Origin: Amphiscolops sp. MND2022
Taxonomy: Eukaryota
Assembly: GCA_964187785.1 (NCBI GenBank)
Contig: OZ076409.1
Coordinates: 76,758,001-76,818,000 of the forward strand
Direction of reading: 5' to 3'
Length of the DNA stretch: 60,000 nucleotides
The notes beneath the pieces are model-generated. The model was not told the DNA's origin. It searched no databases and saw only the letters and a program-made list of their open reading frames with translations. A program made the translations under genes and the position numbers. Positions 1,193-54,308 of the stretch are shown here, one piece after another (position 1 is the first letter of the stretch; every line of letters starts with the position of its first letter).

Positions 1193-1194
1193 AT

Positions 1195-1339: not shown

Positions 1340-1346
1340 CTTCAAC

Positions 1347-1998: not shown

Positions 1999-2266
1999 AG
2001 CACAACCGTTTTCTTCTATGTTAACAAGTATAGTACTACCTCTTTTTGGACTACTTAGTATCTACCACACCTTCCATATACGTATTCAATATACACAAAA
2101 CCCATTCCTTCTTTTCATAAGTATTGTACTTACTATTTTCTTACAAGTGGTTTTCATAGATCAAATTTTACCATATAACTCACAATTCAATACAAAATAT
2201 CTTCTTTTCCGATACATCTATCCTTTATAGCAATCTTATTGTACTAATCAAACTTAATATCATATA

Positions 2267-10472: not shown

Positions 10473-10558
10473 TCTAGTCATTCTATCTGTTGGCTCACTC
10501 AAAACTAGTCACTCCGGTTGAATGAAATATAACCCGTAACAAGTTATCTCAAAGATAA

Positions 10559-11796
10559 CCTGTTGAAAACACTTCAACAACCCTGGATCCTCCCTCTGAT
10601 ATATCTCCATCAGCTCCAAGTATTCCTTCCCCACCTGAATCTTCAGTATCTAGCACTACAAACTCTAGTAATGTAACTCCTACTACTCCTTCTAAAAGAC
10701 CAAGATCATACATCTCTGAAACTACCTCTTCCTCACTTCTTCACAGACCACCTATAACTGAAATTCCTATAAACACTCGTCCCCAACAAACTCCTATTAA
10801 CACTCCTATTATACACATACCAAACCCTGAAAGTGTTGAACAATACGTAACATACAAACATCCTACAGCTATCAAAACTGTTAGACTCCAACCTCAACTT
10901 AATCTTGTACAAATCCCTGATACTGAATATACAAAGCTACCTCCACTAAAATTACCTTCAGAACTTAGCACTACTCCTTCAAAACTTTATCCACCATTAA
11001 AACCTCTTCGAAAACCCTCTACATCACTCTCGAATCTCTTAGACAATAATACTTCAGACTACGCTCCATCACAAGACACAAGCTCACTTTTTGTACCTAA
11101 ACATAGATATAATCTTCGTGACCTTCACGTAGACTTAGTACAGACACTTCAACACTCAATTTTTCGACTCTTTCTAGCAATTCTGCATTACGACTTGTAC
11201 GACAACACGCTCAACCATTGTCCTCTGACACACCATCTTCAGAACTCTTTCAATCTCCTTGTTTTACTTCTGGTTTTGAAACCGCTTCAATACTCTCATC
11301 TAACCCACAGACTGCATTTCTATCAGAAGATCTCTTTCCACAAGTAGTAATCCCTACTCCTGTTCCTGCACATATTAGACTGCCCGAATACTATACTGCA
11401 GAACACTCTAGACCTCCAACTCCAAATTTTGCTGACTATCCACTTAGAGTCGATGGTATAACCATCTACGACCCACAAAACGATCCCCGATTTCCAATTC
11501 TTGCAGAACGTTTTATTAACAATAACGACCTCTTATCTCACAAACGCAAAGAAACAGAACTAAAACGCCTTCAGACATCAAATCTAGAACTTAAATTTGA
11601 AGTCAAAGTTATATTTCAAGGATTAAATCCACACACAATATTTCACGTTTCTAAGATAGAACATAAAACCTCTCCTGCTCCTTTCGAAGTAGTACATATT
11701 GAATTTGAACGCGATCTTAATATACCCACTATCACATATAGCAATATTGTCTTCTGTAACCCATATTCCGGTCTTAAATATACAACATCTTTTTAA
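10559..11796 (+). pseudogene. ORF-X: Pro/Ser/Thr-rich N-part with PSAP and LYPxL motifs plus conserved C-terminal domain (matrix/budding-like, unknown family); one frameshift near 11120
   Basis: An open frame from 10559 contains SPSAP (PSAP at 10607-10618), LYPPL (10985-10999) and RYNLR. The C-part (ORF 11218-11796) aligns with 47920-48444 (TSGFETAS, RFINN, LKFEV, NPYSGL.Y). Start codon not identified. Confidence 0.75.
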
Positions 11797-14446: not shown

Positions 14447-14705
14447 ACACTCTCTCAGTTTTTCTGTAACTCTCTTTCAGTACACTTGCCTACTATTTCT
14501 TCACAATTGCTACTCCTCCACCACTCGAAACTCTTGCAGAAGTTCATCTTCCTCAGCCCAATAATACTTTAATAATAACCGTCTTTAAAAACTCTCAACT
14601 AAAGTTGACAAATCCACTCGTTAGTGTAATTTATAGTACTTTAACTTTAAAGTGCTAAGGCCTCTTGGAATAGATAACACTGTGATTGTTGATGTTTTTA
14701 AAACA

Positions 14706-16033
14706 ATGACACAAGCACAAATTGACCTACAAACACAGCTTGAACAAGCAACCCCAACAGAACTAATAACTAGACCTCTTTCAAATGATTCTCCTGTTCT
14801 CTATATTGAGACTTCAGAACAAACACCTCCAACTTTTCTTGAACCAATGGAACACACAAAAGTTGAAAATGAAAATCCAAAACCTACTCCTTCACAAGAT
14901 GATACTGATCATACACAATCGACACCACCTCCTCCCAAAAAACGATATGAAATAATGAAAGATCCAATCTTTCTTTCATCACCAATATATCCTCCTTCAA
15001 TACCTTCAAAAATTTCACTTTGCACGAATCGCGATGATCATTTGATCTCAATTCTTTCTACTGACGATTTCGTCTTCAAAGCACAACTAACTTCTCTATA
15101 TATGCATCCTACTGACTATTCATTTCGCTTATATGACAAAAATCAAGACTTCTTCACATCCATTGCTTCCAAAATAATGGGTCCATACCAATATTGGCTC
15201 GAGAATGGAGTTAAAATTTTCTCTCTCCAATTCAATTTTCTTCGACCTTCTATATACGATCTCAAAACAGATGAATCTGATCCATCCTTTCTCTCTATAG
15301 CACAAAAAGCTACTCATCATCAGACATATACTAAATTCCTGCAATACACGAAACCACAAAATCATATTTTTGTCAATTACAAATATACATCACCGTTCAC
15401 AATGACAAATATGTACACTCTGGACCACTCCTGTATAACAGGCTACCTTCGGAACTATGACCCTATAAAACAATACTTCTGTTTACTCCCATATAACAAT
15501 ACTTCACGTCCACCTATTGTACCTCAAGAATATCTCATACATTACAATGATTTTTTGTTGCCCTGCAACATTCCTACTCAAATTGCAAAACCTCTTACTG
15601 TTATTAAACACCTCGTTTCTTCTCCACTTGACGATAAAGATAGAACGTACTATACAGTTTCTACAAGCAAACGTATTCATACAATGAATTCCTCTTTATC
15701 TCTGCCAAAACTATCTCTTTCATGGTACAAGCTGAACAAAAAACTGAACATAAATCACACGCTTCACCTATAAAAAACGCTCCTCACAAACTTTCTTCTG
15801 TATTAAACAACCGAACACTTCGCGACATAACAAATTTACTTGAACCCTATAAACGAAACTCCTCTTAAACACCTATCACAACACTCACACCTATACTACA
15901 CTGCTACGACAGAACACACAAACTCCTTCAGACACTCGATTTAGACTCTCAACGCATCACTCAATCATCCCAAGCAATCCAATCTGCTTTGGAAACTATA
16001 ACTACTCTTTTTAACTCAACTAATCTTCATTAA
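14706..16033 (+). pseudogene. ORF4: conserved accessory protein of unknown function (frameshift ~15670, stop ~15866)
   Basis: Aligns with 51038-52310 (LTS.YM.PT.Y.F, TSIASK, LRNYDP.KQ.F, RP.IVPQEYLI, YSY.E..FIS). Confidence 0.75.
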
Positions 16034-16451
16034 AATCTTCTACAGGTAATATAAAGTTCTTAATTTTTCTTCTATGGTACACCCTATGATACATCTGTGA
16101 CACATCCTTCAAGGTATTTTCATTTTTACCTACTTATTTAAGGTAAATTCTTGCTTTTGAATAAAATCTCAGGACTATTTTTCAAGTACACTAATTTTTC
16201 CTACAGTACATGTCGTAAAATTAACTATTTCTATTAAAAACACTACAATACAAGACATACAAGACAATATAGCACAACACTACATATGATACATTAAAGC
16301 ACCCAATTTTGTTGTACATCTTTGACTTGATATTGTCATTCTTCTTACACTTCCTTTGTTTTAGAAACATCCATTCTTCTTCCTCCTCCTTCCATTCTCT
16401 TTCAGAACATCTCCACTTCTCCTTTTTCGTCTTCTACAGGACTCTCTCGTC

Positions 16452-16904
16452 ATGGCCCCCAACGCTGAAATACAAGATATAATTACAATGATTTCCAGCC
16501 ACTCAAAAGTTGATAGCCTAAAAGCAGCTATTTTTCACACAATGGCCTACAAACTTTCCCTGGAAATAAACAACAATAAAATAACGCCAAAATCTCTTAT
16601 CGCCTTTCTGAAAGTCTTATATAATGTCACCCAAATCAAAAAGAAACACATTACATTTGAACAATATTCAAGGATTCATGTCGCCGGACCAAAAATTGCC
16701 ATTCGTGAAACGGCTTCTAATGTCGTTTTTGTGTTAAACTCGGCGTTCACGTCTAAAGACCAATACTTTCAAGCTGCCTTCCACGAAGCCACCAACGCAT
16801 TCAACGAGATGCTTCATAGTTTTGGATATACCCAGAAACTCGAACACTATGATCCTCACCAACATCAGGCACATCCACCTCAACAACATCCTCTATACAA
16901 CTAA
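16452..16904 (+). CDS. ORF5: 150-aa accessory protein of unknown function
   Basis: Intact ATG ORF in good context (GTCATGG) directly after a polypyrimidine tract plus CAG (16437-16439). Weak similarity ITFEQYSRIH to INFDQYLKLH at ~53030 in element B. Confidence 0.55.
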   Translation: MAPNAEIQDIITMISSHSKVDSLKAAIFHTMAYKLSLEINNNKITPKSLIAFLKVLYNVTQIKKKHITFEQYSRIHVAGPKIAIRETASNVVFVLNSAFTSKDQYFQAAFHEATNAFNEMLHSFGYTQKLEHYDPHQHQAHPPQQHPLYN

Positions 16905-17110
16905 AACAATATTCTACTTACTTTATCACTCTTCAACTCCATCTCTTCTTGAATCCGTCATTCTTCCTCAATGATGTTTGAGATGTAGCTGTCGCTCACT
17001 CCTTCAAAGAACTCCTACACATGCTGAAACTCTTCAATTCACCCATTCACGATGGTCAACAACATACATCTCCATTTTGGGTTCATCGACGTTGCCAAAC
17101 TTTGTCCTCG

Positions 17111-17225
17111 TCACTGGTCTTCACACTCCACGATGACTTCTTGACTGGTCTTCACACTTCAAATGCTGACTTCTTGACTGGTCTTCACACTTCAACTGCT
17201 GACTTCTTGACTGGTCTTCATACTC
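17111..17225 (+). repeat. 33-bp tandem repeat (~3.5 copies) in the 3' region of element A
   Basis: GACTTCTTGACTGGTCTTCACACTTCAACTGCT repeated. Confidence 0.9.
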
Positions 17226-18290
17226 CAATGGCCAATACAAATTTCAAACTGAACTGTATAATCAAATTTAACAAATATACCTTGTAACTCCTTGTAACCT
17301 ATCAAATTCTAACTTCCATATAGTATAGTGCTATATACTCTTATCTAATCTTTAGTGCTATATACTCTTATTTAATCTTAATCTCCTCTAATCGTAGTAT
17401 AATTACCCCTCCATTAAAAATAATCCTTCCCAAATTCTACCTATAATTATCCTTGTAACCACAATAGTATCTACTTCCATTGTATTGTGTATAGTACATT
17501 GACATTATCTTACCTAATTATAAACTCCAAAAATAAATCTCTAATCCCCATCTTTTACAGAACACAAGTCCTACCTACAGTACAAGAAATTTTCTAAGAT
17601 TTTTGAACAAAAATTTTTCTTTAACAAAACATGTTCTACACTTTTGTTTTAATCCCCAAAAGCATTCCCAAACAATTTTCCAAATTTTTCTTTAAAACTC
17701 TTAACAACTGTCACTTCTAGTTTTCCAATGTTTGAAACTTGAAATAGCCAAAGTTTTTTTCAACTCTTGCTTCTGCTCTACTATTCACTTTTGTTGAAAA
17801 TGAACTCTCACTCGAACCTTGACTTTTCGAAACTTCTTCACTTTTGGTTCACATACCCGCCAATGTTGGTTCACAACTCATTGACAACTTCACGCTTTAA
17901 TTCTTCAACTTGAAAAGTTTTCAATGCTGACTAACTCATGTTGATGAAGAATTTTTTCAAACAAGCCGATGGCTGATACGAAAAAGAAACATGAAATGAT
18001 AAATAGTTGTCAACAATAACTTCAAAGAACTTGTCAGTCAAAGAAACTGAAAGAACTTGAACCTTGCTTGAACCTTTTTGCACCAATTGAATCGTCTATG
18101 ACGTAATGACGTAAGAAGTCAAATCGTTTTAGGTTGTTCTCACTCCTTAAGTATGGTACTCTACAAAACAAAACTCATGCAACTCTAGTACAACACAAAT
18201 GAAACAAACCCATGCATATAACAAAAACTTCTAGAACTCCTCGAACCCAAACTGCATATATGTAATTTAATTTTTAAATTCCCGGTTGAT

Positions 18291-18691
18291 TGTGATGCCA
18301 TGATGCATGTCCTCAAAGATTCTATAAATTTGAAATACTCTGAACTCCTAACCAAACCAATTAGTAAATGTAATCTAATTTAGAATCTAAGAAACTTCAT
18401 TTAATAGATCCTGTATCAAGCTCCCCTGCTTCATCCTGTTGCTGTCACATTGTTAATTGATGTAATCTACCCTAGTTAATAGAATATATCTACTCGGAGA
18501 AATTGAGAATTCATCCTAGCAACCAGTCTTCCTCCCATACTTCAAGAACTGAGATCTCAGAAATAGATTGTACTCAGAACTAGCTAGCTACAAGATAAAA
18601 GATAAGACGACTTCGCTGTTAAAATCTTAGACTTCTTATGTCAGTACTAACACTTCTAAAAGAAACCACCACACAACTTTTTAACAGCTCA
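18291..18691 (+). repeat. 3' LTR of element A
   Basis: Direct repeat of 792-1192, followed by TSD TTCA. Confidence 0.97.
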
Positions 18692-19869
18692 TTCATCCTA
18701 TGCAATTTCAACCTATGCAATTTCAACCTAGGCAATTTCAACCGTTGCCATTTCAACTGCTCACAATTTCAACCTATTGCATTTTCAACCGTCCGCCAAT
18801 TCGACCTAAACTAATTTTGGCTAATGGATATTAATTAGTTGATAATTGTTTTAATGGTTTCAACTTTCATACATTTCTACTTTCAAAGGTGCTGATTATT
18901 ACGCCAGTTTTGATGTGTTTTGGCTTCTTCATGAATAATTACCAACAATTAAGGCTGTTTGATTCATTAGTAATTATTATACTGAAATAATAGCTCAACC
19001 GAATTAAAACTAAATAGCCGAAATTAGTTTAGGTCGAAATTGAGGACGGCTGAAAATTCAATAGGTTGAAATTGTGAGCGGTTGAAATCGCAACGGTTGA
19101 AATTGCATAGGTTGAAAGCGTATTGGACGAAATGTCATGTAACCTCAGAAACAAATATTTTCCACAGTATATACTGATTAACAAAAACCTTGAGCAAGAG
19201 AAACGCAGCGCAAAACGTCGGAGTCTTCATTATGTTCGGGAAAATTTCACTACCGAGACTCGTAATATTGGATGTCTGAACTAAAAATAAGCTTTTAGAA
19301 AAAATCAATGTCAAAATGGAAGAATGCTTTCAACGAGTTGAGAGATGGATTAAGTCATCGTGTATTGAAAGATTTCATACCGCAAAAGTTTCATTCATAT
19401 AGTTTTTATCCATTTTTCTATACAGGATAAAGCATACCAAAAACTTTGCTGTGCGAAAGTGCCGCAACTTCAAAGCTGTAACTTTGAAAGAACGAAACTT
19501 TCGCACTGCAAAATATTTTTACTCTGTGAATTTTCCAATTTCTCCTGAACGAACTCGCTGGTAATTTCCCGCAGAAATGAATCCCCTCCGGACAATTGGG
19601 AGGCAAAGAAACTTACATTCCGCCATTTTGCCACCACCTGTTGAAATATATCGATGATTCCGTCCTCACGCATTCTCGGGTTTTTTGCTCACGAGAAATC
19701 AAAAAAGTAAAAGATAATATACCCCATGTTTGTATTATGAATTTTCATGAAAATATGTCTGGTTGAAGTCGTTCAACATAATTTTTAATGAGCTCCACAG
19801 ATGCTTTAGTTAGGCTAGCCAAACTGTTTTAGTTTCGCACACCTTGATACAGGAGTCCCTTGGAATTGC

Positions 19870-20560: not shown

Positions 20561-20965
20561 TATTGTTGGGCTTTAAGCAAGTCCTTCATTCATAGCCCAG
20601 TTGTGTATGGTCAATGACAAAAAATAACGCATGGCGGAGAAAAGCAAAAGAAAAAGAGCAACGGTGATCAGTCAGACCTTTGTGACGTTGAGCTAGTTCA
20701 AGTCATCCATTGCTTGACCATTTATTTGGCTGCAAATATGGAACCATAGTATTCGAATGGGCGCCGATTTAGAAAAGCAGCACTGCTTATTCGTTGTCCA
20801 CCCAACGGAATTGGACAAATTAACTTCTCTTTTTCCCTCTTTGAGCTTTGAGATGATTTTTGAATTATATTGCACCATTATGTTACCCCGCTATCCACGA
20901 TATCGATTACATACCTCAGAAAACACAGTTCTAACTACAACTTGACTTCTACAAACTGTTAAAAC

Positions 20966-21427
20966 GATTACCAGAAAACTCAATACAAGAAAACTCAACA
21001 CAAGAAAACTCAACACAGAAAACTCAACACAAGAAAACTCAACACAGAAAACTCAACACAAGAAAACTCAACACAGAAAACTCAACACAAGAAAACTCAA
21101 CACACGAAAACTCAACACAGAAAACGCAACACATTTTAAGCATTTAATAGTCGGGATATATCTTTCACATGTAAATTCCTTGTTCTTACTGCTCCTATTT
21201 TATGCATTTGACACAATCTTTAGAGGTAAAGGAAATTATACGGCTTTATATGTGTTTGAAATGACTCGCAATTGTCACGAAGTGTAAACAGAAATTAGAC
21301 GGGTTTAACAATTAGTTAGATTTCGGAAATTAAACTCAAATGAGGTGTTAACTAAAATTTAATAAATGTGTTCAAATGTGTTGAGTTTTCTCTGTCAAGT
21401 TTCCTTGTGTCGAATTTTCCGTACCCC
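20966..21427. mobile_element. Foldback/MITE-type element with tandem-repeat TIRs
   Basis: (AGAAAACTCAACACA)n at 20972-21133 mirrored by TGTGTTGAGTTTTC-type units at 21377-21427; flanking direct repeat GTTAAAAC (20958-20965, 21428-21435). Confidence 0.75.
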
Positions 21428-36704: not shown

Positions 36705-36982
36705 TGTACTGACCTACATTAATAACCAATAGTATTTAGATGTTCGTAGAATGTTCTAGAATGTACATTTATTTATTTTTGAATGACTGTAAAACTCTTC
36801 TCCTTCAGAGAGAGAAAACTAATAACCAGTATTTGGTCGACTTCCTTTTTGCTCTACTTCTACCATCTCATAGCTAGCTAGCCAGACCTCGACGCAGCCT
36901 TTCTTAGTAAGCCTTTAAGTAGCCACCTCCACCTTTCAATAAAATAAAAGGCAAACACCCAACAACTATTTATGGCAGCACA
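36705..36982 (+). repeat. 5' LTR of element B
   Basis: TGTACT...GGCAGCACA, 278 bp; about 10 substitutions plus 1 indel versus 54030-54308; AATAAA near the 3' end. Confidence 0.97.
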
Positions 36983-36985
36983 ATT

Positions 36986-36998
36986 TGGTGCGACTTGT
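36986..36998 (+). promoter_or_regulatory. Primer binding site of element B
   Basis: TGGTGCGACTTGT begins 3 nt after the LTR end. Confidence 0.85.
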
Positions 36999-37022
36999 AA
37001 AAATTTTTCTTTTCACAACTGA

Positions 37023-37343
37023 ATGCTTTCTCTTCTCTCAACAATAATACAACTACCACTCCTCATTTTTGAAATTCTTTGGGATTGCAGTGAAAATTTT
37101 CTGAATTTCCTTGAAGACTTGACCTGTGACTTTCTGAATTTCTTCAATAAATACATCATTGTTCGACAAACAATTTCTCCAATACAAACATCACTTGAAA
37201 TATACCAAATTTCTTCACCGCCGGTTTATCACGTTCTCCAACATGTTGACACGGTTCTTCTTCTTCTGCTTCTCTTGCCTTGCCGGTTTATCACGTTTTC
37301 TAACACGTTGACACGGTTCTTCTTCAGACTGAATTATCCGTAG
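37023..37343 (+). CDS. Leader ORF homologous to 1205-1339
   Basis: Shared FL(D/N)F..(R/K)Y..VR.T(V/I)SP motif; the 3' half overlaps the hairpin array. Confidence 0.45.
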   Translation: MLSLLSTIIQLPLLIFEILWDCSENFLNFLEDLTCDFLNFFNKYIIVRQTISPIQTSLEIYQISSPPVYHVLQHVDTVLLLLLLLPCRFITFSNTLTRFFFRLNYP

Positions 37344-37546
37344 TGACACAGTTCTGCTTCTCTCTTCAGACTGATTTATCCTCAGTGACACAGTTCTGCT
37401 CTCTATACCGATTTATCACAGCTATCCGGAAGCTCGTTGACACAGTGATTCCTTTCTCTTTGTCTGGTTTATCAAGAACATCTAACACCTTTGACACAGC
37501 AAATTTTGTCTGGTTTATCAAGGTTTTCTAACACCTTTGACACAAC
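37218..37546 (+). promoter_or_regulatory. Array of 7 internal-loop RNA hairpins in the 5' leader
   Basis: Unit (CCG/CTG)-RWTTA-TC(A)...(T)GA-CA-(CGG/CAG) repeated with variable apical stems. Confidence 0.7.
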
Positions 37547-38820
37547 AATCTTCTTCAATCCTGCTATCTTGAACGTCAGGTGGACTCCTGATGTATTAGT
37601 TGACTGAGTGCATGTCAGACTCCGCTCACCTATAAGCACATACGTTTCAAGATCAACTTCGTGTTGGCAGAAAACCTGAATTTTCTATTTTTACGTTTTG
37701 GATCCATTTTCTACAAAAATCTTATATAACTTAGCTTTCAGAATTAGACTCTGAAATTCAAAACAACGAACCAAGAAACTCAATCAAATCAACCAAGTTT
37801 TATCCTACTTCATTTTCCATTATGTCGTCGACAACGATACAAAAATTTTCCACATAAAAATATAAACATTTCCAACACACTCTATCGTTTTAAAAATTAT
37901 TAACAACACAATTTCAACTCTTTCCCTAATTTCAACTCATTTACACTTTACAAAACATTTATTTTAACAAAAACACACATATAAATTGAACGCTCTTCTT
38001 TTGCCCTAAAATCTAAAATAAGGCATGCAAATAAAACACACACTGTAAAGGTAGTTTTCTACTTTCAGGCACCCACAATTCCTATTCCCTCCCGTAAGAC
38101 TTAGACAATCAGACAGCTTTAATAGCTATATCTGATTCTAAGACTGACGAAAACCTTAGTTAAGTTTAAACGTCAGTAAGGAGAACCTAGAGGACACCGA
38201 ACTACGTTCGAATGTTCGAAATTTTCAAGAAATAAAAGTAAAAGTAAAAGGTACAAAGATCAAAACTTTGATCTTGATCAGTATTGATCAGACTTTGGAT
38301 AGTGGACGTTGATTGTTCAGAGTTCCGTTCCCTTAGTCTTAAAACACACAAACTCCTTAAAATTAAAACACTTGTAGCCTTTCTGGATGTGACAGTAACC
38401 TTATGTTAGACACTTTACAGTAATCCAAACTTAAAATCACAATTAGTTTCTTTTAGCAATCCTTTGAGGTTGAATACAGATTCTACTGCATCCGCTTCTT
38501 TTCTCTATCCCAAAACATACAAATAATTTAAACAACTTCAAATCCACTCTATATTATACAATAAATGAATTCAAACACACACCACCAAAAATCAGATAAT
38601 ACATTTTTTATACTCCTATAACATCTGCTTCTCTACCCTCAATTATAAACCAAATTAACTCCCTTCAAAACCCCACCACTGAAAATTTTGAAAGCATAAT
38701 CCAACAATTTCAACAATATATTTCCCACATTATAGAACAACAAAGATTTTATCCAAGATCTCCAACTTGAAATTTTTCACATCAAACTTCACTTTAAACA
38801 TTGAACCTTCACATCATAAT

Positions 38821-38934
38821 ATGTGGGAAAAAGTTACCACAGTAGTATTCATCACCACATACACATTTTGTGTTTTATTTATAGTTTGCATCCCGTTAGA
38901 AAAGATACTTACCACAATCCGAGATACCATCTAG
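38821..38934 (+). CDS. Putative 37-aa membrane peptide immediately upstream of gag
   Basis: MWEKVTTVVFITTYTFCVLFIVCIPLEKILTTIRDTI; the stop is 1 nt before the gag ATG. Confidence 0.35.
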   Translation: MWEKVTTVVFITTYTFCVLFIVCIPLEKILTTIRDTI

Positions 38935-38935
38935 A

Positions 38936-41900
38936 ATGAATCTCTCAACAGCTCCCCTTTCCCCCTTCCAAATACCTTACTTTAAAAATGCAAAGGTAGT
39001 AAAACGTGAAATAACACCATTCTTACAAAATATTATATACAATTACACACAACCACTCTCATTTGAAAATGAGTCTTTTACAATTGAAACAATTCCTCTT
39101 ATTAGAGGACACTTAGATACCAATCTTTTCTGTATTAGATATAGAAATACAACTATTCCTACAGAATACCCAACTTTTCAAATTTCCTTTCCTCAACAAG
39201 GATCCTATTCGCATCAAATATATAGAAGAACAATAAACCCAATAAACCTTCTAACTCCTATAAAAGAAGTTTTCCAAACCTTTCTAAATCACGTAAAAGA
39301 ACACAATTTAACAAATGAAACCCCAAAATTCAGTCCAAATGCACTTGAAGAACTTGATCAACATGTAGGTAACTTCGAAGTAGAAGTTATAGAAAGACTA
39401 GTTGATCCTCAAAACAATCCCCATCTTTGGTTACAAGCCGATACCTTAGGTATACAAAACTTCCTATATCATTATTTCAAAGACCTTACATTGAATAACC
39501 AAACAATACCTCAAGTTCAAGTAATCTCTTTATTCCTTCGAAAATATTTCCGATTCAACTATCAACTATTATGGTCACCACAAGTTCAACCTGCTTTCAC
39601 AGCATTTTCAACTTATTTTACACCAGATGAATGTTTACCATTGATCATAAGTGAACAAAATGACCATCCCTACTTCTTTAGACTAGATTCAATTATACAA
39701 CATAATATCGACCGTATAAACCATGATCCTCATTTGATAACGAACAATAACTTACTTGATGTTAATAGACCTTATCACTACCAACGAAACACTCCAGTTC
39801 AACAAGATCTACTTATCAACTTTGACAAAAATGATAGAGATAATGAAACAAATAATGCAGACCTACTTCAACAACAAGGAGTTAATAATGAAAATATACC
39901 TCAACAACAACATGAAAATGAAAAGTATAACGAAGACAATCAATTAAACGAAAACAATACAAGTGAGTATAATACTCAAGAATCTACAACTTCTGCACAA
40001 AATGCATCACAAGCTGGAACATCGACAAATACCCAATCTTTCAGAATTCCAACTAGAAGTGTTAGTCCAAGACAAAATACACTTCATCCTCAATCTAATT
40101 TAGACATATTTCAAAACCGAAATATTACTTTTAATTTTCCACCTCACCCAGATGAAACCACACAAAATGAAATTCAATGTACAATACAAGAAGATACTCA
40201 ACATATAAATTCTATCCGTAATACCTCTGTCAATGTTTCATCACCTACAAGAACTACTTTTATTAATCCAAGATACATGACTCGATCAAGATATGATCCT
40301 CCATCAATTCCTTCTGCTTTTCAATCAAACAGATCAATTCAATTAAACGATAATCACAATGATAATCAACCTACTTCTAGTCGTTACTATGATCCTTTTA
40401 ATTATTCCTTTTTTCCATCGTCAGATACAAATACTAATGCAAATAATAATCCAAATTTTTCTCAACCAAATCTTAACTTAAGAACACAAAACCCACTTAC
40501 AAATACACAACCATTAACTTTTTCAAGAAATGAATTTAATTCTCAAAGTCAAGCAACCTCTTATACAACTTCTTACTCACATACAACACAACCTTTTCAA
40601 AGGAGACATCAAAATCCTCCACTCACACATATACCTGCTGATCCTTTATATCAAATAAATCAAAATATAAATCATAACCCTAGTACAAATCAACTACCAA
40701 TAAATACCATGCAACCTGTAACTCTTCCACACACACAATCTGTAACTACTCCACTCCAATATATACCAGTACAACATGATACAGAATATGTCTGCCTCAA
40801 TACCAGAACCTATGAAACCTTTTGACGGTTTAGATCATTCCTATACCCCAGAGGAATACTTACAGCAAGTTGAAGCAAGATTCACCTTCGCCATAGGTGA
40901 AGAACCTCTGAATAATCCTATCAAATATAGATCTTGGCATAATAGACGCATGGCATATATACAATGTTCTTTAACTGGAACCGCCCTTGATTGGTATACA
41001 AACCTCCATATATCATATAAACAACAATGGAATTCATTTGTACAACTATTCAAGAAACAATTTTCATCTCAAAAAACAGCTTACGACGTACAAGTAGAAG
41101 CTATGTCACTCATGAAAAAAGACAACGAAACAGTACGTCACTTTGCACTTAGAGTACAACAACTAGTTAATAAGGGATGGTGCAATGAAAATGCAGCCAC
41201 CATAAACCTCAAAAACATAGAAAATTTTCAAAAAAGGACTACCTAAAAAAACTAAAAGACTTTGCTCACAAAAGACAAGTTAAACATGTATCAACGCTAC
41301 TTGAACCATCAATACATTTCCATACACTTGTTCGACATGTTGATTCCGAAGACATCGCTAATGAAAAAATACCAACAAATGATTTAGCTTTAGAAATGAC
41401 CACTTGAAGTATCACTTGAAGATGAAACAAATACCAAAGTATTAGAACACGAAGAACATATAATGGTTACCCAATCGGGAGACCCAATTAACAAAAGCAA
41501 ACCAGCTTATAAAAAATATTGTTCATACTGTCATAAAAACAATCAAACAATCATAGTATTTCAAATTGTTATCAAAAACAACGTGATGATGAATACCAAA
41601 GATATCAAAACCAAAGATCAAGAATTCCTCAACTATCTTTTGTACAATACTTTCGTAATAAACCCAATACTTCACAAGAAACTCGAAATGAAAACACAAA
41701 TACTTACTCTTCTAATGACAATGATCGTAGTAAATATAACCAAAATTGTTACAATGATAAATACAGAAATAACGATAGATATCGCAGTAACAGTAGAGAT
41801 TATTCCCAAAATAGTCATAGATCTAACTCTCGACAGAGATATTACAATAGCTCTCGAAGTCCATATAGATCTCGATACGAAAATTATTACAAACGAAGAA

Positions 41901-44900
41901 CTCCATCTCGATCTCCATATAGATCTCCATACAGAAATAACTCTAATTAGAGATACAATTCACGATCCCGATACAAATCTCGTTCTCAACCACAAGGAAT
42001 TTCCTTTAAACGATACACTTTACCATATAGATCTCCATCTAGACCAAGCGATTTCAGATCACGATCTAGAACACCTTCACAAAACAGACAACAAAATAGA
42101 ATAAACCAAGTAGATGTTAAACCTAAAAATGACAAAGATAGTACCAAATTTGAAATCCATACATGTCAAATAACTGAAATTGCAAACACAATTACTCCTT
42201 ATAGATGGTTTTACCCACTATATGTTCATACCTCTGAAACGAAAGACAACTTATTACCTTCAAAATTAGAAATTCTATTTCTTCTAGACACTGGAGCCTC
42301 CATATCTGTTTTGAACTTACCGACATTCCATGTAATTTCTAAACAACTAAACCTCAATGTTCCAACGAATATCGAAAATAAAAGAGCTAAAACTCTTACA
42401 GTTGCAAATCAAACTCAAGTACCAATAATACATTATTTTTCAATGACATGTTTCACTGAAACAAACCATCAAAATCGATCGTTTAATATTGACTTTGCCG
42501 TTGCAAACATTAAATACAACATTCTTGAACACCTTTCTTCAAAAGGCATATTCAAAATATCGATTTTCAACAAAATATTATGACTTATAAAGAACAACAT
42601 TCAAAACATCCTACAAAAACACACTTCTCCACATTTACAGAAAAGGACTATCCATATGTTTCATACAATTATACTATTAAATGTAAAGAACCAATTCACT
42701 TTAAACCAAGATCAGGCAAAACCATACATTTCCCAATCAAAAATTATTTGAACTTACATTTTTAACTGGAAGATAATACAAAATTCTACCCATCAACTCC
42801 ATACACATATTTCTTGCAAAAATATAAAGATATTTTTCATTTTCTAGACATGATAGTTAATGACAAAAACAAAGACTCATGTGCAACAATAATTCAAATT
42901 TTTACATCTCACCCAGCTACATTACCACGAGGAATAATTGGTTACATAGAAAATCCTATACCTCAAACAACTCCTCCTCACTATAGAGTGCACGATGTAA
43001 ACTCTCTCATTCATTTTGTAATACATGCTTATCATCCTGATACCACTATTCCAATTAAACAAAATGAATATACCGATATGAATTTATGTACTCGAGTATT
43101 CCCAAATCATTATTAGAAATCAACAAAATAGAAATAATTGATAAAACACTTCAATTACCAAAACCTTCTGTTACTGGAAATCTTCGACCTTCCGATAAAA
43201 TAAGAAAAAACGTTTCCTCCATTACCATATTCTACAGAAAACCAGCAATTTATAAAGAAATTCAACTTTGAATACTCAGATTTAACTGATACTGAATATC
43301 TAAACCTCTGCAATATCCTCATTAACAATCAAAATTGTTACGCAAAGCACAAAAACGACGTAGCACAAAAATTTCTACTCCCTTCAGAATTAGAAATAAA
43401 GAAAACTGTATACTTCAAACACAAAGACCTTCTAAAGTACCAACACATTACAGAGATCGACTCAATAAACTCTTATTAGAACTCGAAAAATATAATATAA
43501 TAAAACAAATTGGTTCCACACCAGATGAAATATATACAATTGGAACAACATTCCTAAATCCTTTAATCATTATTCCCAAAGGAGACGCGATAAAAGTCGT
43601 CCTAGATGCTAGACATCTTGACTCAAATACAAACCAAGAACTTGAATCTTGGCCTATTGAACCTCTAGCTCCTCAATTAGCTAGAGCTAACAAAAAATAC
43701 AAATCAACCATTGACCTAATGTACGCATATTGATGATATACTACTATTAGCAGACGAAAAGCAAGAAATGTTTGAACTTATCAAAGAACTTCATATAATA
43801 GCAACCAGAGAAAACCCCAAACTTGCACCTGAAAAATCACTTTACATGTTACTCAAAGTAAAATTCCTTGGACATGAAGTAGGGAGTAACACAATAAAAC
43901 CAATTCCATCAAAAATTGAAGCCATCAAAAAAATTCCCTCACCAAAAGAAAAGAAAGACGTTATGCAATTTTTAGGCAGTGTTAACTTTTTTTCAAAATT
44001 CATGGAAAAACTTCATATAAACCTTAAACCACTGTGTACCTTATTACATGAAGATATTAAATTTCAATGGACACCCGAACTAGAAAAAATATTTCAAGAC
44101 GTCAAAAACGCAATGAAAGCAGATACTGAATTAACAATACCTAATCAAAACATCCATTTTTAATAACAGTAGACGCTTCAATAGTTGGTTTAGGCGCAGT
44201 CTTTTTCCAAATGAATGAAACAAACAAAACGAAAGTTATTTTTTACAATTCAAGAGTTCCTAATACACAAGAACAAAAACTTTCAACTTTAGACAGAGAA
44301 CTCCTCGCAGTAGTCTAAGCATTACAAATATACGAATTTCTCATAATTGGATCTCCTCATCCAATATACATCTTTACAGATCACAAACCGCTACTACATT
44401 GTTTCGCAAAAAAAGGAAACCTTAGTCCTAGATTTTATAGAGCACAAATGCAATTAACAAAATTTTCCAAACTGAAAATTATCCATACTCCTGGAAAAAA
44501 TATAACTGTAGCAGATATGCTTTCAAGAACTTTTACAAAAGAACAACTTCAAGTACATCAATTACGACACAAACAATTACCACCCCAAATAGACTTCTCG
44601 ATAATGAAGGATAACCAACTTGAACCAGTACAATATTTAGTGAAACACGAAGAAACCGAATGTAATCAGAAAAATGATTGCCATAAAATTCTTGCTGATT
44701 ATGGAGACGATCAATTCTCCTGAGGTATAAACAACAAAGGAGAAGACATTCATATAAAACACTTTGACTCATTCTCTTTTCAATCGATTGTTTCCTTTGA
44801 ATCCAGATATAAAAGACCTACAAAGAATCAAACAAAATCACTCTTACAACAATCAACTATTCTTAATGACACTGATATTCTTAGTGATGACGATGAACCA

Positions 44901-46860
44901 ACATAACCACAAGATGTTAAGAATCAAAATTCAAACGTTGGCAATACAATATCCCACTTAATCTGATTACTGTAATCAACAAGTTCCATTTTTTGATCCC
45001 TCCTTCTTCAAATATAAAAGATACTCTCATTACTTTTTCTTACCAGAAAACACACAAATGACAATTGAAACAATAAAAACTTAACAAAAACAAGACCCTG
45101 TTTTACAAAAAGTTTTTCATTGGTTAACGACTAATGACAAACCCTTACAAACAGACCCAATAATAGCAAGTATTTCTTTCCTTTTAGTATACTACAAATT
45201 CTTCAACCAATTATATAATAATCATGAAACAAAAATCATTCATATAGATTACCCTAATCTTCATGATTCAAATCCAAGCCAAAGAGACAAAACATGCTTT
45301 CCATTTAAACTATTTCATGCAGCTTTCAACCAACTTCACGCACATGGACATTCAAGAATTAAAATATCCATCAAAGCTTTTAACCAATTTTCTTTCATAC
45401 CATATTTAAACAAATGGATGTCGATATTTATCCATGATTGCATTGAATGTCAACAGAACAAACACATTAATCAAAAAATTCAAACTGCACAATACAAACA
45501 TTTTCTGAAAAAGCCTCATATTTTAACTATCGAATATCAATGGACACAAAAGGACCTATAAACCCACCATCAAATCAAAACTCCTACATCCTTGTTATAG
45601 TAGACGCCTTCAGTCACTTTGTAGTAACAGTACCCATAAAACAAAATATTGCGCAAAACGCTGTTAACTCTTTACTACACCATTGGATTACCAACTTTGG
45701 ACCCCCTGTATACATAGTAACAGACCGTGGTTCAGGGTACATTATTTCTAAATTTGCAAATCTTTGTACTACAATGGGAATTAGACATTCACCCAGAACT
45801 CCTTACGCACCATGGACAAATGGTTTAGTAGAAAATCAAAACAGAAACCTTGGAACTCATTTCAGACTTTGCTTACACAATACCCCAGAAAATTGGTCTA
45901 CTCAAGTCCATATGTACGCTTATGCACATAATTCACAACCACTTTCCGAATTAAATCTTTCACCTTATGAAATAGTATTTCATACTATACCAAGAATTCC
46001 AATCAATTTTGAACTCAATCTTCAAAGAGATACATATAGAAATTGTACATCTCAATATTGTAAGAATTACCACTTCGTACACATTATGACAAATCCAATT
46101 TAAACCCTTTCTTCCATAAAATTTTATCAAAACCAATTTTACAATGGATTTTAGCTACTGAAACTGCTATGATGCAAATATACCATACAGTTTATGAAAA
46201 CACAAAAAGAAAAAACAATTTATTTGCTTATTTTAACAAGACCTACCATAATCCAAGATCCTTAGACATTGGTACTTTCGTACTAAAGAGAAATTTTCTT
46301 CATGTTCACTTTTCAGACAAATTGAAACCTCTCAGAATTGGACCATTCAAAATTATAAATAAAATTTCTGATATAACATATGAAATTGTTAATCAAGATG
46401 GTTACACGTCTCATATTCATAGAAATCATTTAGTTCCTTATTATCCAAAAGAACCAATCAATTTTCCTTTTTTACAACAATAAAATCCTCATTCAATTAA
46501 CGACAATTATAATGACTCGGATCTAAATGACCCACTACAATCTTTTGACTTCTTATCCGACGAAGAACAATCAATTTACGACGACCAGTTCACACATTCA
46601 AATTCTAATAAGAAAACGGATACACCATCCACAATTGATTTCCAATCAGAACCTTTTAGTCAATATTCTTCATTTCCGTACCAACAAAATACACCAAAAA
46701 CCAATAACACTAAATCAGAAAATCAAACTGATTTTCACGATTACGATAATTTTATTAATCCCCGAAGACACTCCTACAATAAATATAATTTCCCCCCACA
46801 ACCACGAAAAGACTATCGACTTTTCCTCAATGAAAAGGATATAATTTCACTTTCTCAAAA
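38936..46860 (+). pseudogene. gag-pol: gag-pol of element B, many frameshifts and stops, deletion in the RT core
   Basis: Fragments homologous to element A throughout (PFDGLDHSYTPEEYL, CSYCH, LLDTGAS, VLDARHL, MDTKGP, VTDRG, KLKPLRIGPF). Confidence 0.95.
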
Positions 46861-47084
46861 ATCCTGCTGAAAGAAAGAATGTTTTGATTTCGAAACCGAA
46901 TGTTGAAAGAAAGAAAGTTTTGAAACTGAACGTGAAAGTGAATAAAGAAACAGTACAAAACAAAACAAAATCTGAAATAAATAATACAAGATAAACACAT
47001 TTCAAAATTGACCGAAATAAACACTCCTCTTCATCTAGCTCAACATATTCACTCCAAACATTATCTTAATACACAACATTTTTA

Positions 47085-48444
47085 AACTCAGATACTGACA
47101 TACTGGATTCCTCGTCCTCAAACCCCAGCCCATCTGCTCCATATTCTCCTGATAGAGCACCAGCTACACCCACTAATACACCTATACTTCAAACTCAAAC
47201 TTCAGTAATAACAACTCAACCACAAGCAATTCCACAAAAGTTGTTATTCTTAGACACAGGTTCACCAACCAGTGACTCGTGTGATGAATCAAATACAACA
47301 CAAAATACTGTACAAGATACCTCAAGTATCCTAATTAGACCCCCTCTTCCTCCAATTCCTACCACCTGTACTGTTCATATCCCTGATCCAAGTTCTGTTC
47401 TTCAATTTATTACTCCTTGTCCACATAAAATACCAACAGCAACCAAAACACAAAGAAAAACTCCTTTGCCTACACTACCAAAAAATCTTACTTTTCCATC
47501 AACAAGTCAAACTCTAATAACTACTATACCAAAACATACAATTAAATCACCAATAAAGAAATTACCAGAACTCCCAATTAACTCACCATCAGAACTGAGT
47601 TCATTCACATTTTCTCAATTATATCCAAGATTAGAACTACAACGTGTACAATCAACAACTACTTCTTCTTTACCAGACTTATATTACAAAGATAAAGACT
47701 CTGATTCAACTGCTAGTACTAGAGTACCACAACATAGTTACAATCTAAGATCTCAATCTAGACGAAATTCTCAAGAATTACAATCTTTAACTAGTTCTAG
47801 TACTAACTCTAGACTAGTTAGACAACAAGCACAACCACGATTAGATACTCCTTCTCTTTCCTCATCTCACCCTACAATACCATTGTCTTTATCAATACCA
47901 TTTCAAGTAACATCAGGATTTGAAACAGCATCTCTTCTTTCTGAAGATCCACAAACTATATCAGATAGTGAAGCTAACTTTTCACAAGTTTATTCACCTA
48001 GTTCAAAACAATCTAACTCATCTGTACAGTTACCTGAATATTTCTTGGAAGATTATTCAAGACCTCCTACACAAAAATCCACACGAATACCCTATCCGTG
48101 TTAACTCAAGAATTTTTCGTAGTTTTAACGAACACCCTCGATATACTGTACTACCCATTAGATTTATAAACAATAGCGCTCTTTCAAATCCAAGAAAACA
48201 AAGAGAATTACAAAGGTTACAAGAAGACCAATTAATATTAAAATTTGAAGTTGAAGTTACTTTCATCTCATTTAGACCTCATCCAATTTCTCTTTCAACA
48301 AGGGTAGCACATAAAACAACTACCTCACCATTTTTAGTCACATCTATATCCTATCTTTGTGACCCAGATTTACCAGAAATTAGATCAGGGCATATAAATT
48401 TCTCTAATCCTTATTCAGGACTTAATTATAGAACAATATTTTAA
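47085..48444 (+). pseudogene. ORF-X of element B
   Basis: PSAP (47130-47141), LYPRL (47619-47633), SYNLR, TSGFETAS and the conserved C-terminal domain; frameshift near 48080. Confidence 0.75.
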
Positions 48445-48446
48445 CG

Positions 48447-50500
48447 ATGAATAACAAAAATTTTAACTAATACATTGTATACAAAATACATGCCGTTAAA
48501 TACGCATTCATAGTACACTTAGTTCATTCCTCATCTGTTCCTAAAGTTCAAAAACGAGTTCAAAAACCTTTTAGAGTAACACAATTAAACACTTGGCATA
48601 TTAGAACATTTGTACTCGATGAAAATTATTCTGATTGGATAGTTAATTTTACAAAAAATTCATACTCAAGATGTAGGAGTGACCGAGAACATTTAATTAC
48701 CCGACAAAGTGGGGAACTTAGAATAGTTAATACTATAATAGACTACGATGATAAAAACAATTATATGATTCATGATGGACATATATTACCATGTTACCAT
48801 TCAGGCGGATTTTGTAAACCAACAACAAAGACTCCATATACATTACCATGGTTTGATGAAAAGTTTGGCCTCATATTTCAAATACAAGAATTCATTAGAA
48901 GAATGACAAGAATTGAAGATCGGTATTGGATAGAAACAGACACCTTTATCGACGCCTCAAATATTACACAAAAATTTCAAACTGAAGGAAAACAAGGAAC
49001 AAAAGTTCCAAATGTTAAAACACCGCAATCACCTGTAGACAATCCAAGCCTTTCCAGATTTGAAATATATCCAATTGCTCAAACGTTTTGTGGAAAACCA
49101 GATCCAGTATACTCAACACAATATGAAGACATCTTTGTTACATACTTAGATGGTTCTGATATGAACACTGGACAACCAAGACCACACTCAATGATAGATC
49201 AAAGAATTAGTGGACAGATACAATATGACAATACAAATAAAAAGTATATATTCCCTGCACTGAATATATCAAACAATTTCGTCACTCTAGACTATGATGC
49301 TCACATTAAAACAAAAATTTACTTCACCATAAATCATGTATTTAAATCCATGTCAGTACAAGAATTAAACAAACTTCATACAATATGTGAACTAGAAAGA
49401 ACTCAATTGTTAACAATCTTAGCTATATCAGTTAAGAATCCTCAATTAGCTGGTTTTCTTTTAACTGGAAATCTTAGTAATTTCCTCTATGTTGAAGGAT
49501 CTACAGCATGGCTGTATGATTGTCCTCATTTTATATCACCACCATATAAGACAGATAAATGCTTTGATAGAATTCCCATACACTATAGAGAAACTATAAT
49601 GTATGTTGACCCTATAACAAGACAAACTTTTAACTATGCAACACCAATTGAATGTGGAAACAACCCACAAAATATAATCGAATTAGACCCTGATTCAGAT
49701 GACGAAGATTTTTATGTGTTAACACCAGAACCACTTAAAAGGGAAGCACCACAAATGTTTAAACCTACTCAAATTAAAACCACAATAACTCCCAGTACCT
49801 TTACCGCCCAAGAAGCTCGTATATATTCAAATGCAGAATTAGATCAAATCTGGAATAGAGTATTAGTTGCAAAACACTCAGACACCACTCTCCAATTACT
49901 TGGAAAATCATTAAGTTTTGATTTCATTACTGTACATAATGAACGTCACTCCCATTCAGGACCCAATCTTTATAATCATTTAAGAATTGGAATACATGAC
50001 CACCTATTAAACTTTTTACCACTTTTTAACCCTGACTGGTTTAGTCAAGCTTTTATTAACTTCTTTGGATATCCATGTTTTGTTTTAACACAATGTGGAA
50101 TTTGTTTTTCAACATTTCTTTTCATCAGAGAAGTTTTAACATTTTTACTTAAATTTTACAGAACAATTAGTATAAAATACAATCTCCAAAGTAACATTTC
50201 TATTTTGAGTTCAAAAGCTCATGGATTTTTTAAAATAGTAACATCGGAAATGGTAACTGATTTAAACAATACAGGAAAGCGAAAACGGATGTATACTAAA
50301 CACAAAATTACCACTAGCGAAAACGACAATATCCTATTGCCGAAAAAAGGAACACAAAAAAAATGAGAAGATACTCTGATAGCGACTCCCCTTATTTGCC
50401 GCCCAAATATACAAGTAAAAATTCAACACTTCAATCACCAAAAAAGACACACCCAAACAATAATACTGATATTAATTCACAGGACTATGACCCCATAGTA
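48447..50500 (+). pseudogene. env: env of element B, N-terminal ectodomain deletion and tail frameshift
   Basis: ORF 48765-50366 closely matches 12540-14060 of element A (GFCKPTTKTP, CELER, CFDRIPIH, TM segment). Confidence 0.85.
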
Positions 50501-51037
50501 TAAAATGTTATAGCTTTACCGGAAAGCCCCGCTAAAGTCTTTATAAAATTTAATCCCTCCTAACCAAAAAGCAATCACCAAATAAAACAAATTAACTCAA
50601 AAAGTTCACAAAATTAAAAATAAATTCCCCACCGATTTTACTTTCATTCAAACTCAAATTCTCATTTGGACAAGTTGCCAACTTCAACTCAACACAAGTT
50701 GCCCACATCAATTTAACCAAAGGAACTTAGAAGTTCTTCTTCTTATTTCAAGAATTTGGCCTAATTCAACTCAGCCAAACAATCTTCAACTTGACCCTCA
50801 GTCCCTGTAAACAGACTGAAATTACAGAAGTTTCTATTCCGGGAATAGATACCACTGTGATTGTTGATGTTTTAACCCTCAACTAACTCAAAGTATTTCA
50901 ATACTGTAAGTACAATTTAAACCCTATTTTCAATAATAACTTTAAACTAATGGACCAAAAGTATATAACAAAAACATTAATCTTTGTTAAAAGGTATAAT
51001 TACTGTTTTAGCGCTACAAAACACACGCGTTTAAATA

Positions 51038-52310
51038 ATGGAATACTTGCCCGATGTTGATGTAGTTAATTCTAGCCCTTCTGAATTGCATACATCCCCT
51101 TTAAACATAACTATTCAACAAAATGTTAACGAAGATAATAATTCATCTTCAAATTCTCAAGATAGTATGGAAGTTATTCCAGTTGATCAAATTGATCATA
51201 TAAACACAAGAACTCAAAAACGAAAATACCCAGATATAACTGCTGACAAACCTTTTATGGAATCTGGCGCTTGCCCTCCTTTCATAAAACCAGTAAAACA
51301 AGATGAAAACAGAGACAGTGAATTAACTCCTATTTTATCATCAAAACAATTTCCATTTCAATTTCATTTAACCTCAATATACATGATACCAACCAAATAC
51401 AAATTCATCATCAGAGAATTCAAAAATGATTATCATACTTCAATTGCTTCAAAACTAATCACCCCTATGACTGGTGGTTAAGCAATAAAGTGAAAATTTT
51501 CTCAGACCATCTCTATACGACCTCAGAACTGAAGAAAATGACACAAATTTTTTACCATATCAAATAAAGAAATCTCATCATGTCTCTTACCAAAAGTTTC
51601 TTCAATACAAAGAACCTGAAAATTACTTGTTCTTCAATCCGAAATGTACATCACCCTTCACTTTCAACTCAGAATATCTGAGAAATCATACTAAAACAAA
51701 GGGAAAACTCCGAAATTACGATCCTTTAAAACAAAGTTTCCTTTTCCTTCCAAATGATAACCCGAAAAGACCAATTATTGTTCCACAAGAATATCTCATT
51801 TTAATTGACGATTCGCTACTACAGGAAAATAAACCTCAAAAAATATCAGATCCTTTTCCTCCACTTCAACACATAGCCTCTCAACCCCTTGGAGACAGCG
51901 AAAAATCTTATTACTACGCTATGACCAAAAAGGGATATTCATATATTGAATTAATATTCATTAGTTCTCATCTGCTTTCACTTCTTATAAAAGGAAATAA
52001 TAAAGAACACAAAAAGACAAAACACGACTCTCCAAAGAAAACAAAAACGGACATTCCTCAACCACAAGGTTTCCTCCTAACTGAAGAATTACAAATATAC
52101 AAAGAAATATTGGATGTCAAAAAACCGTATCATCATTCAAAAAGAGATATCATCGTCACTATTGCCGAAATCGTAAACACCCTCGAACAAGCTCGAAATT
52201 TAATACAAAGTATCGTATTTGATACGACGAGAGTGAGCCAATCAGCTTCATGTATACGCACATCCTTAGATGATTTCAGCTACATATTTGAAAAAATGCA
52301 AAGATCTTAA
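51038..52310 (+). pseudogene. ORF4 of element B (frameshifted)
   Basis: Homologous to 14706-16033. Confidence 0.75.
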
Positions 52311-52716
52311 CTGGTAATTATGGGATAATAGCTTTATAATTGTTAACATTTATCACTTAAACTCTTAACAACCTGTCAAAATGAATTGAGTCTACCCGTA
52401 TAAGCTTGCTATGCATGACTGTACTCTATATTAAATAATAAAATACACTCCATACTAAAAGAATGAAATTATTTTCATTAGCGACATGAAAAATTTTAAC
52501 AAAATTCTTCAAATGCTCCTCCTTTTATTGAACCGATTTTAACCAATAAGATCTTAAGTGAAAGATATTTAAATACCCTACAAAAGACTTCCAAAATACA
52601 CTAACTTGATTCTTAAATATAAAAAAAAATAACACATTAAAGTACATAAGAAAAATGTCAACTATAAAAATCCATTTTTAAAAGAAATTCAATGTGAACA
52701 AACCAATCTATTTCAG

Positions 52717-53182
52717 GTGAATTTCGCCAAAACTTCTTCTTCTACATTTCTTCTTCATCTCAAGACATTGATCCACTGGCTCTGAGCGACAATTCCCAAT
52801 TATTCAGTCATTTCCTTCAAATTCTTCTAAAGATGACATTACTGGATTCAACTAAAGAAGAATCTCCAATTGCCCCTCTGCTTTCAGTTCCTTCAACTCG
52901 ACTCCGATCCCTCATCCTGAAAAACATTTACCAACATTCTATACACAACTTACAAAAGAAAAAAGAGCTGACCCTCACTTACCCAGATTAATTCTTCTAA
53001 ATATGTTTCAAATCTTCCAAGTAACGAAGATCAATTTTGACCAATACCTCAAACTTCACAAACATCCGGATACATATATTATCCAATGCGACGCTACCAC
53101 ACAAACTGAATATACTACCATACGCCCAAAGCCTTTTTCGAGAACTTTATCCAATAAGTCTCGTACAGAATTCGAAAAATAA
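52717..53182 (+). pseudogene. Possible degenerate ORF5 of element B
   Basis: Follows a TTTCAG acceptor-like site at 52716. The frame ...QVTKINFDQYLKLH... weakly resembles ORF5 of A. Confidence 0.3.
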
Positions 53183-54029
53183 AATCTTACATCATATTGG
53201 CCCCCAGATGAATGTGACACCACTGACGAAGAACTTCAAAAAGACCCCCCTGAAGCTTCTATCGACCACAATTCTGTGTAAATATCGTATACTTACGTTT
53301 CCTTTTGATGAACATCTTCAACAAATTCAATCAGTCAACATCCCAGATGACATCATTCCACAATGACAGCAACATCTCTCATATGAATCGCCCAGATGAA
53401 CAGAATGCATTGACGACTTCAAAAAGATCATCCTCCATCCTCACCCATCATCGACTCAAGCCACCCAAGATAATCCAATCAATCAACAGATGATATGCAG
53501 ATAATATGAATAACAATAAATAATCGACAGCAGAAAAACAAAAAAACATTGTACTTGATTATGAGTAAAACTTTAGAAACACTTATTTGAAATGTACTTG
53601 CGATTAAATTTATCTTAAAATATACAATAATAATTCCCACCCATATTTATTTGCCCTCATATTACTCTCATCTTGTGCCCATACCGATATTTATATGCAT
53701 ATTTTCAATGAATAATTCAGTAATATTATTTTTCAGTGCTATTCAATCCTAATAATTCAAAATGTTAACAAAATTCTTTTCAAAATTTCAACAAAAATGA
53801 GTTCAAAAATTAGATCAAGCACACTGCTAAATCTCAATTTGAATAATGAGAAACCCAATTTCTCAAAGATTTTAACATTTCTTACATAACAAACCCGCCA
53901 AAGTTGAAAACAACCTGAAATCTTTAATAAGGTTTAAATATTATAATTTATGAAATCTTTAATAATCTTTAAACAACCTGAAATCTGAAAATAATGTAAA
54001 AAATTAATTTCTTTAAAAACCAGGATGGA

Positions 54030-54308
54030 TGTACTAACCTACATTAATAACCAATAGTATTTAGATGTTTGTAGAATGTTCTAGAATGTACATTTATTTA
54101 ATATTGAATGACTGTAAAACTCTACTCCTTCAGAGAGAGAAAACTAATAATCAGTATTTGGTCGACTTCCTTTTTGCTCTACTTCTACCATCTCATAGCT
54201 AGCTAGCCAGACCTCGAAGCAGCCTTTCTTAGTAAGCCTTTAAGTAGCCACCACCACCTTTCAATAAAAGAAAAAGGCAAACACCCAACAACTATTTAAG
54301 GCAGCACA
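54030..54308 (+). repeat. 3' LTR of element B
   Basis: Direct repeat of 36705-36982, followed by TSD GCTG. Confidence 0.97.

Follow-up and report, generated by a model that had tools for sequence, protein, structure and literature searches.

What is the function of a row of seven short hairpin-like units in the 5' leader of an LTR retrotransposon, and why does a related element carry a different row at the same place? The first-pass annotation of this locus proposed that the two rows are family-specific RNA barcodes read by a co-evolving element protein. The window, the whole 60-kb stretch of Amphiscolops sp. MND2022 DNA that we analysed, holds two LTR elements, A (792–18691) and B (36705–54308), each with a 4-bp target duplication. 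All coordinates refer to the window, and the parts of A and B given here lie on its plus strand. Element B, 17.6 kb long, has LTRs at 36705–36982 (TG...CA ends, target duplication GCTG) and 54030–54308. The core of its primer-binding site (36986–36994) is common to clades A, B and D and matches the 3' end of a host tRNA-Met(CAT). In copies L227 and L066/L286 the complement reaches further into this tRNA, which identifies tRNA-Met(CAT) as the primer. The coding layout was taken from copies elsewhere in the genome, in which one gag-pol frame of ~2,650 aa is followed by an ATG-less ORF-X, env, ORF4 and ORF5. In the window copy of B, we find the Gag N-terminal domain at the start of gag-pol (38936–39718), a frame that is broken in this copy, the conserved C-terminal domain of ORF-X between pol and env (48076–48441), part of env (48519–50231), the conserved core of ORF4 (51296–51893) and, in pieces, an ORF5 of the B type (52833–53305).

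Both elements encode Ty3-type gag, RT, RNase H, integrase and an env with the Monjiviricetes fusion glycoprotein PF24664 (E 1e-27 in a clade D copy). The best match of the RT among solved structures is Ty3 (E 3e-38). TG...CA LTRs, the 4-bp target duplication, the tRNA primer site, the pol order RT–RNase H–integrase and the Ty3-type gag and RT place the elements in Ty3/gypsy (Metaviridae). Members of the lineage measure 17–19 kb and combine the Monjiviricetes-type env with three accessory ORFs and small leader ORFs, which makes the element unusual in its own right. We take the backbone of Anakin, whose envelope is chuvirus-derived, to be BEL/Pao. As far as the available parts of PMC12440569 and PMC7642597 describe them, Anakin and the errantiviruses are likewise LTR elements with a captured viral envelope gene; compared with these, the elements here have a Ty3-closest RT, a 4-bp target duplication, the ~2,650-aa gag-pol and three extra ORFs.

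Searches with the Gag N-terminal domain divide the family into three clades, with mutual identity of 40–48% in that domain. A first look at the 1.07-Gb genome gave 1,285 leader candidates for B and 2,361 for A, 40 of which were scored in each case, and a search for the A-type LTR/primer junction gave 2,088 matches, a control search 7. The two LTRs of a copy are about 95% to 100% identical in all three clades, indicating that the clades were recently active, side by side. The stretch between the two elements of the window contains an inverted repeat of 137 nt and a 14/15-nt tandem array that has an inverted partner (18700–19138 and 20944–21147).

The seven predicted hairpin units of B are present as first described, spanning 37221–37545 in the 5' leader. 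Units 1 (37221–37254) and 2 (37283–37316) have a lower stem of the C-G type, unit 1 with an apical part of 17 nt. Units 3 (37329–37351) and 4 (37371–37393) are of the U-A type with a 6-nt loop; unit 5 (37408–37445) has a long apical stem; unit 6 (37464–37499) is of the U-A type with a 19-nt apical part, and unit 7 (37510–37545) is of the same type as unit 6. Unit 5 carries a C·A mismatch in its lower stem that is private to the window copy (1 C-A versus 26 U-A among B1 units of that type). The linkers between the units are pyrimidine-rich. A simple anchor pattern matches seven times in the array and, in the rest of the 60 kb, once on each strand. A covariance model built from B units recovers all seven at 29–50 bits, although part of these are its own training set, and finds nothing else above 14 bits in the 60-kb window. 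Pattern matches and model together indicate that the seven units are real.

Do these units fold? The folding energy of the B array is no help (z +1.69; 97 of 100 shuffles fold as well), and single units range from z -1.10 to +0.77. Folding energy was therefore discarded as support for the B hairpins, and the case for structure in B rests on comparison. By contrast, z is about -2 to -2.7 for two of the three A units scored and for one D unit in the correct frame. For the comparison we used four B subfamilies (30, 20, 18 and 20 loci), with Gag N-terminal identity down to about 60%. In 58 B1–B3 leaders with an intact primer site, columns that differ among B1, B2 and B3 number 0 of 112 in the motif, 21 of 102 in the linkers, 9 of 105 in the apical parts and, for the free position that faces the A, 2 of 7. 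The difference between motif and linker columns has a Fisher p of 5e-8 if columns are treated as independent; the B motif is under strong constraint, by purifying selection.

The pattern of pairing is informative in one place. The third lower pair, scored in 524 anchored units, is U-A in 356, C-G in 152, U-G in 7 and something else in 9, so that 508 carry U-A or C-G; these tallies count copies, not events. The switch recurs inside one unit type: in subfamily E this type has C-G nine times and U-A three times, while in B1–B3 it has U-A in 114 of 115. All three inner pairs are intact in 491 of the 524 units and at 24 of 81 control anchors, which include some true arrays and for which, as for the units, the anchor fixes one letter of the innermost pair. 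In a set of 28 distinct, hand-picked B units, the named structure is 92% paired, compared with 88% for shuffles and 28–38% for controls slid along the sequence; only one of its eight pairs changes on both sides. Hence the co-varying closing stems of the first-pass annotation come down to a single pair that switches between C-G and U-A, the other seven being without two-sided change, and that single pair may stem from few events. The constant asymmetric internal loop needs correction too. Its core letters are invariant, but the 5x2 loop is one of three possible registers, and RNAalifold prefers a 2x2 loop in another register (-1.16 kcal/mol). The free position opposite the A is C in 393, A in 112, U in 17 and G in 2 of the 524 units, a variability that fits a 3-nt bulge and an A·N mismatch.

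Invariant core letters and poor folding energy are also what one would expect of DNA sites, either an enhancer or insulator array or the DNA target of an element protein. The halves of the B unit resemble GATA, Hox/Pbx and TALE sites. A precedent is VANDAL/VANC of Arabidopsis, in which, according to PMC5735166, an element protein and family-specific tandem target motifs in DNA diverge together; that system is a DNA transposon with DNA targets and a known reader, while the covariation here speaks for structured RNA, for which there are candidate readers. A DNA-site reading is nevertheless very unlikely. The apical parts of 6, 7, 17, 19, 21 and 22 nt make the spacing of the half-sites variable, and duplex recognition does not explain the C-G/U-A switch, G-U wobbles on the plus strand, or the permuted units of A and swapped stems of D described below. 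About as improbable is that the units are neutral tandem duplications, or act in the RNA in some other way, for instance by blocking nucleases or in dimerisation. Unit number does vary among copies, but frozen motif columns beside drifting linkers disfavour neutrality, and in three clades an array arose at the same position.

Structural support for B is the weakest of the three clades, and covariation is stronger in A and D. In the window, the A array (1341–1643) has five bulged hairpins; a circularly permuted unit and a three-way junction complete it. Each A unit is a stem, a 6-nt bulge and a stem, and the first two of the four bases that precede it covary with the bulge. These 5'/bulge dinucleotides are GG/CC in 235 and CG/CG in 147 of 392 units from 85 loci, which suggests a 2-bp pseudoknot; a further stem type, with CG/CG, is present in 67 of 86 leaders. 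About 75 A units are circularly permuted, which makes sense only for a folded strand. In D and F the array is built from three-way junctions, whose stems show swaps and U-G wobbles (136 units, 37 loci). Bulged hairpins in B, hairpins with a 6-nt bulge in A and three-way junctions in D/F are the three array types, and 40 further loci reached by distant queries (38 A, 2 F) held no fourth. The B-unit model, run on 94 kb from ten loci, matches none of the complete A or D elements. These surveys bear out the view of the first annotation that the array motif is family-specific, and the third clade carries a third motif. An Rfam search of four leaders gave a single chance-level match outside the arrays (E 0.14).

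The three leaders are not entirely different. The junction, in which one unpaired U lies between the closing pairs C-G, A-U and C-G, stands as one copy immediately behind the array in most leaders of A (77 of 87) and of B (56 of 73). It is present in 3–6 copies in 19 of 19 D leaders and in 1–7 copies in 15 of 18 F leaders, against a background of 2 matches in 108 kb. In both window elements it lies within the minimum-energy fold (A, 1571–1643; B, 37561–37670). By this comparison, D appears to have multiplied a common junction, and A and B to have multiplied private motifs. The A and B motifs were originally called unrelated; this is true of the array units, but the leaders are partly common through the junction and the same primer site, and so they are not purely private barcodes. 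The long arm of the B junction (37575–37660) holds further conserved hairpins where A has the permuted unit; 10 of 154 columns differ in this region of B.

Position is the next clue. The B array lies ~235 bases 3' of the primer site, directly behind uORF1 and 1.4 kb ahead of gag. The claim that position and copy number match those in A stands for the place; copy number is similar but not fixed, since A leaders have 1–7 units, with six in 42 of 86. The uORF1 of B has 106 codons in the window copy (37023–37343) and 60 in most B copies, where it ends just before unit 1 (37023–37205). The frame for a similar peptide in A (66 codons, 1139–1339) starts within the LTR and reads through the primer site; 75 of 85 copies keep its ATG in frame. 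Between A and B, uORF1 is thus conserved at the peptide level although the DNA does not align. Small, mostly hydrophobic ORFs lie between array and gag (leaders L032, L208, L123, L139 and L240), and one small leader ORF is apparently common to A and D.

This arrangement raises the question whether array and junction control translation, so that gag, 1–1.9 kb downstream, is reached through host factors by re-initiation after uORF1, shunting or internal entry. Conservation of uORF1 in both A and B, with its stop only a few bases ahead of the first unit, would suit such a role, as would the hydrophobic leader ORFs and the pyrimidine-rich linkers; PMC8206606 considers this role for the repeats that follow a uORF in coronaviruses. 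However, clade D has an array and no uORF1-like ATG frame of at least 35 codons ahead of it, and the host machinery would presumably need no three motifs in one genome. We regard translational control as improbable.

Retroviral packaging signals lie between the primer site and gag, and in all clades the array is found in this interval. Together with the frozen motif columns, the recurrent pair switch, the 92% pairing and the stronger RNA evidence in A and D, this leads us to propose, with a probability of roughly 0.4, that the array is a multivalent, clade-specific packaging signal for the full-length RNA, putatively bound by Gag. The broader statement, that it is a selection signal for genomic RNA read either by Gag or by an accessory protein, packaging and export being taken jointly, is probably correct. 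As a packaging signal, each unit would display a small bulge core of invariant sequence on a stem with a free apical part. Because the B units fold weakly, we infer that a bound protein would stabilise them. Tandem copies could then nucleate the assembly of Gag on its own full-length RNA. The reading surface would lie in the divergent N-terminal domain of Gag or its R/S/Y-rich tail, and not in the zinc knuckle, which is conserved; the single junction may be an older determinant common to all clades, later multiplied in D.

Copies that lack the array are also in line with the packaging reading. A search for A copies with an unusual sequence junction right after the primer site gave six matches, four of them without the array and each with a different junction; the junction of one more array-less A copy differs likewise. 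Array-less copies were found only as singletons, which fits a needed cis element, in a test that covers junctions adjoining the primer site. An amplified deletion family that keeps the array, sought as a positive control, was not found; a supposed amplified deletion family in D was rejected, as nine of nine copies are colinear with the full element over 10 kb apart from one ~90-base gap.

Retroviral psi, RRE and CTE are structured cis-elements of the leader or genomic RNA whose readers are Gag, an export protein of the virus or a factor of the host. They form one folded domain or two to three repeats, unlike the arrays here. A closer likeness is offered by coronaviruses, where repeated motifs that differ between lineages are established or proposed packaging signals and one has been tested as such in MHV. 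According to PMC8206606 and PMC12911879, the coronavirus repeats (SL5; the Embecovirus packaging signal) are 2–8 copies of a short structured motif, follow a uORF in the 5' UTR or lie in regions unique to gRNA, and have covarying stems and a fixed displayed loop or bulge. The arrays described here are likewise short, repeated, lineage-specific motifs with covarying stems, in B with one covarying pair and weak energy; a crude scan for splice donors and acceptors gave no conserved leader donor that could be placed relative to the array. Unlike the coronavirus repeats, they belong to an LTR retroelement, come in three types in one genome, consist of separate hairpins with pyrimidine linkers and are known from sequence.

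Which protein would read the array? Across clades, identity is 63–76% for capsid, 77–79% for RT, 69–77% for integrase and 54–75% for env, and lower for the ORF4 core (44–55%), the ORF-X domain (40–49%) and Gag-N (40–48%). The nucleocapsid region is 43–63% identical, and its zinc knuckle is near-identical, making the knuckle an unlikely discriminator. ORF5 is the only protein region tested without a cross-clade tblastn match; ten others are 40–91% identical. That ORF5 and not Gag is the most divergent protein, and that the knuckle hardly changes, argues against the packaging reading, as do the folding of the B units, no better than that of shuffles, and their single covarying pair.

The divergence of ORF5 would suit instead a response element for ORF5, ORF4 or ORF-X that exports or licenses the unspliced genomic RNA, similar to Rev/RRE or CERV. 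Among 20 3' regions, several of which lack the end of the element, an A-type ORF5 is present in four of four A regions and a B-type ORF5 in two of four E regions, the other two having no B-type match; a D-type ORF5 is present in one D2 and one F region, and four F regions have none at E 0.001. Thus ORF5 type follows clade in A and in half of the E regions. D and F, both with a junction array, have weakly similar ORF5s (profile comparison, E 0.013), and an ATG-less ORF-X with three ORFs downstream would imply splicing. A nematode precedent is Cer1/CERV of C. elegans, an LTR retrotransposon with a novel accessory protein, made from a spliced mRNA and needed for gRNA export; the available text of PMC10309623 does not contain the terms 'stem-loop', 'response element', 'RRE' or 'leader'. 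ORF4 adds a predicted small beta-barrel (best Z 7.0, rmsd 2.2, 49 residues), which at low confidence may be KOW/Tudor/SH3-like, in a model whose mean pLDDT is 40, about 55 at the barrel, and with Z values up to 7.0 being common to many unrelated barrels.

Several points weaken the export reading. The profile comparison also hints at a link between A and B (E 0.0015, probability 17%), with none across the pairs A–B and D–F; the A and B ORF5s may be distant homologs although their arrays differ. At L231, an F-type start is followed 10–20 kb on by a B-type 3' end, a nested insertion or a recombinant. Any fast-evolving accessory gene would look the same: ORF5 diverges along the lines of the arrays, as the proposed co-evolution of motif and protein predicts, but there are three clades only and the match is confounded with their phylogeny. 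We consider an export element unlikely, if less so than translational control.

Other searches for the reader's identity gave little. The accessory proteins have no Pfam match above the cut-off and nothing convincing among the sequences of solved structures, the ORF4 core and ORF5 have no Atlas match, and no fold could be assigned to the ORF-X domain (best Z 3.5). ORF-X has a YNLR motif in all clades (11108 and 47739 in the window), which to us recalls the chromatin-binding sequence of foamy virus Gag. Relatives of Gag-N (P0310, P0324, P0334 and P0264) are 33–48% identical, without a close match in this genome; for P0310, P0334 and P0264 no Gag-N match exceeds 47% here. This suggests that the lineage is present in other species too; among metagenome and viral contigs no relative was confirmed.

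The boldest version of the barcode idea is that, in this complex, retrovirus-like Ty3/gypsy lineage, each clade has its own orthogonal RNA–protein pair, a different small RNA fold amplified into an MS2-like array and read only by its own ORF5 or Gag-N. We find this rather doubtful, as we do a strict self/non-self reading of the arrays, which is made less sure by the junction common to all clades. If orthogonal pairs do exist, thousands of co-resident copies in three clades would neither package nor activate one another.

Our literature search, which covered main texts and few subscription papers, found no description of such arrays in LTR retrotransposons. The design as such is known from coronaviruses. 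The motifs by which an LTR retrotransposon tells its own RNA from that of close relatives are poorly defined. With three clades side by side in one genome, this family supplies three repeated RNA motifs small enough to be synthesised, together with a few candidate readers. If motif and reader prove cognate, the pairs would add new orthogonal RNA tags of eukaryotic origin and would show clearly how a recognition code can switch through repeat amplification.
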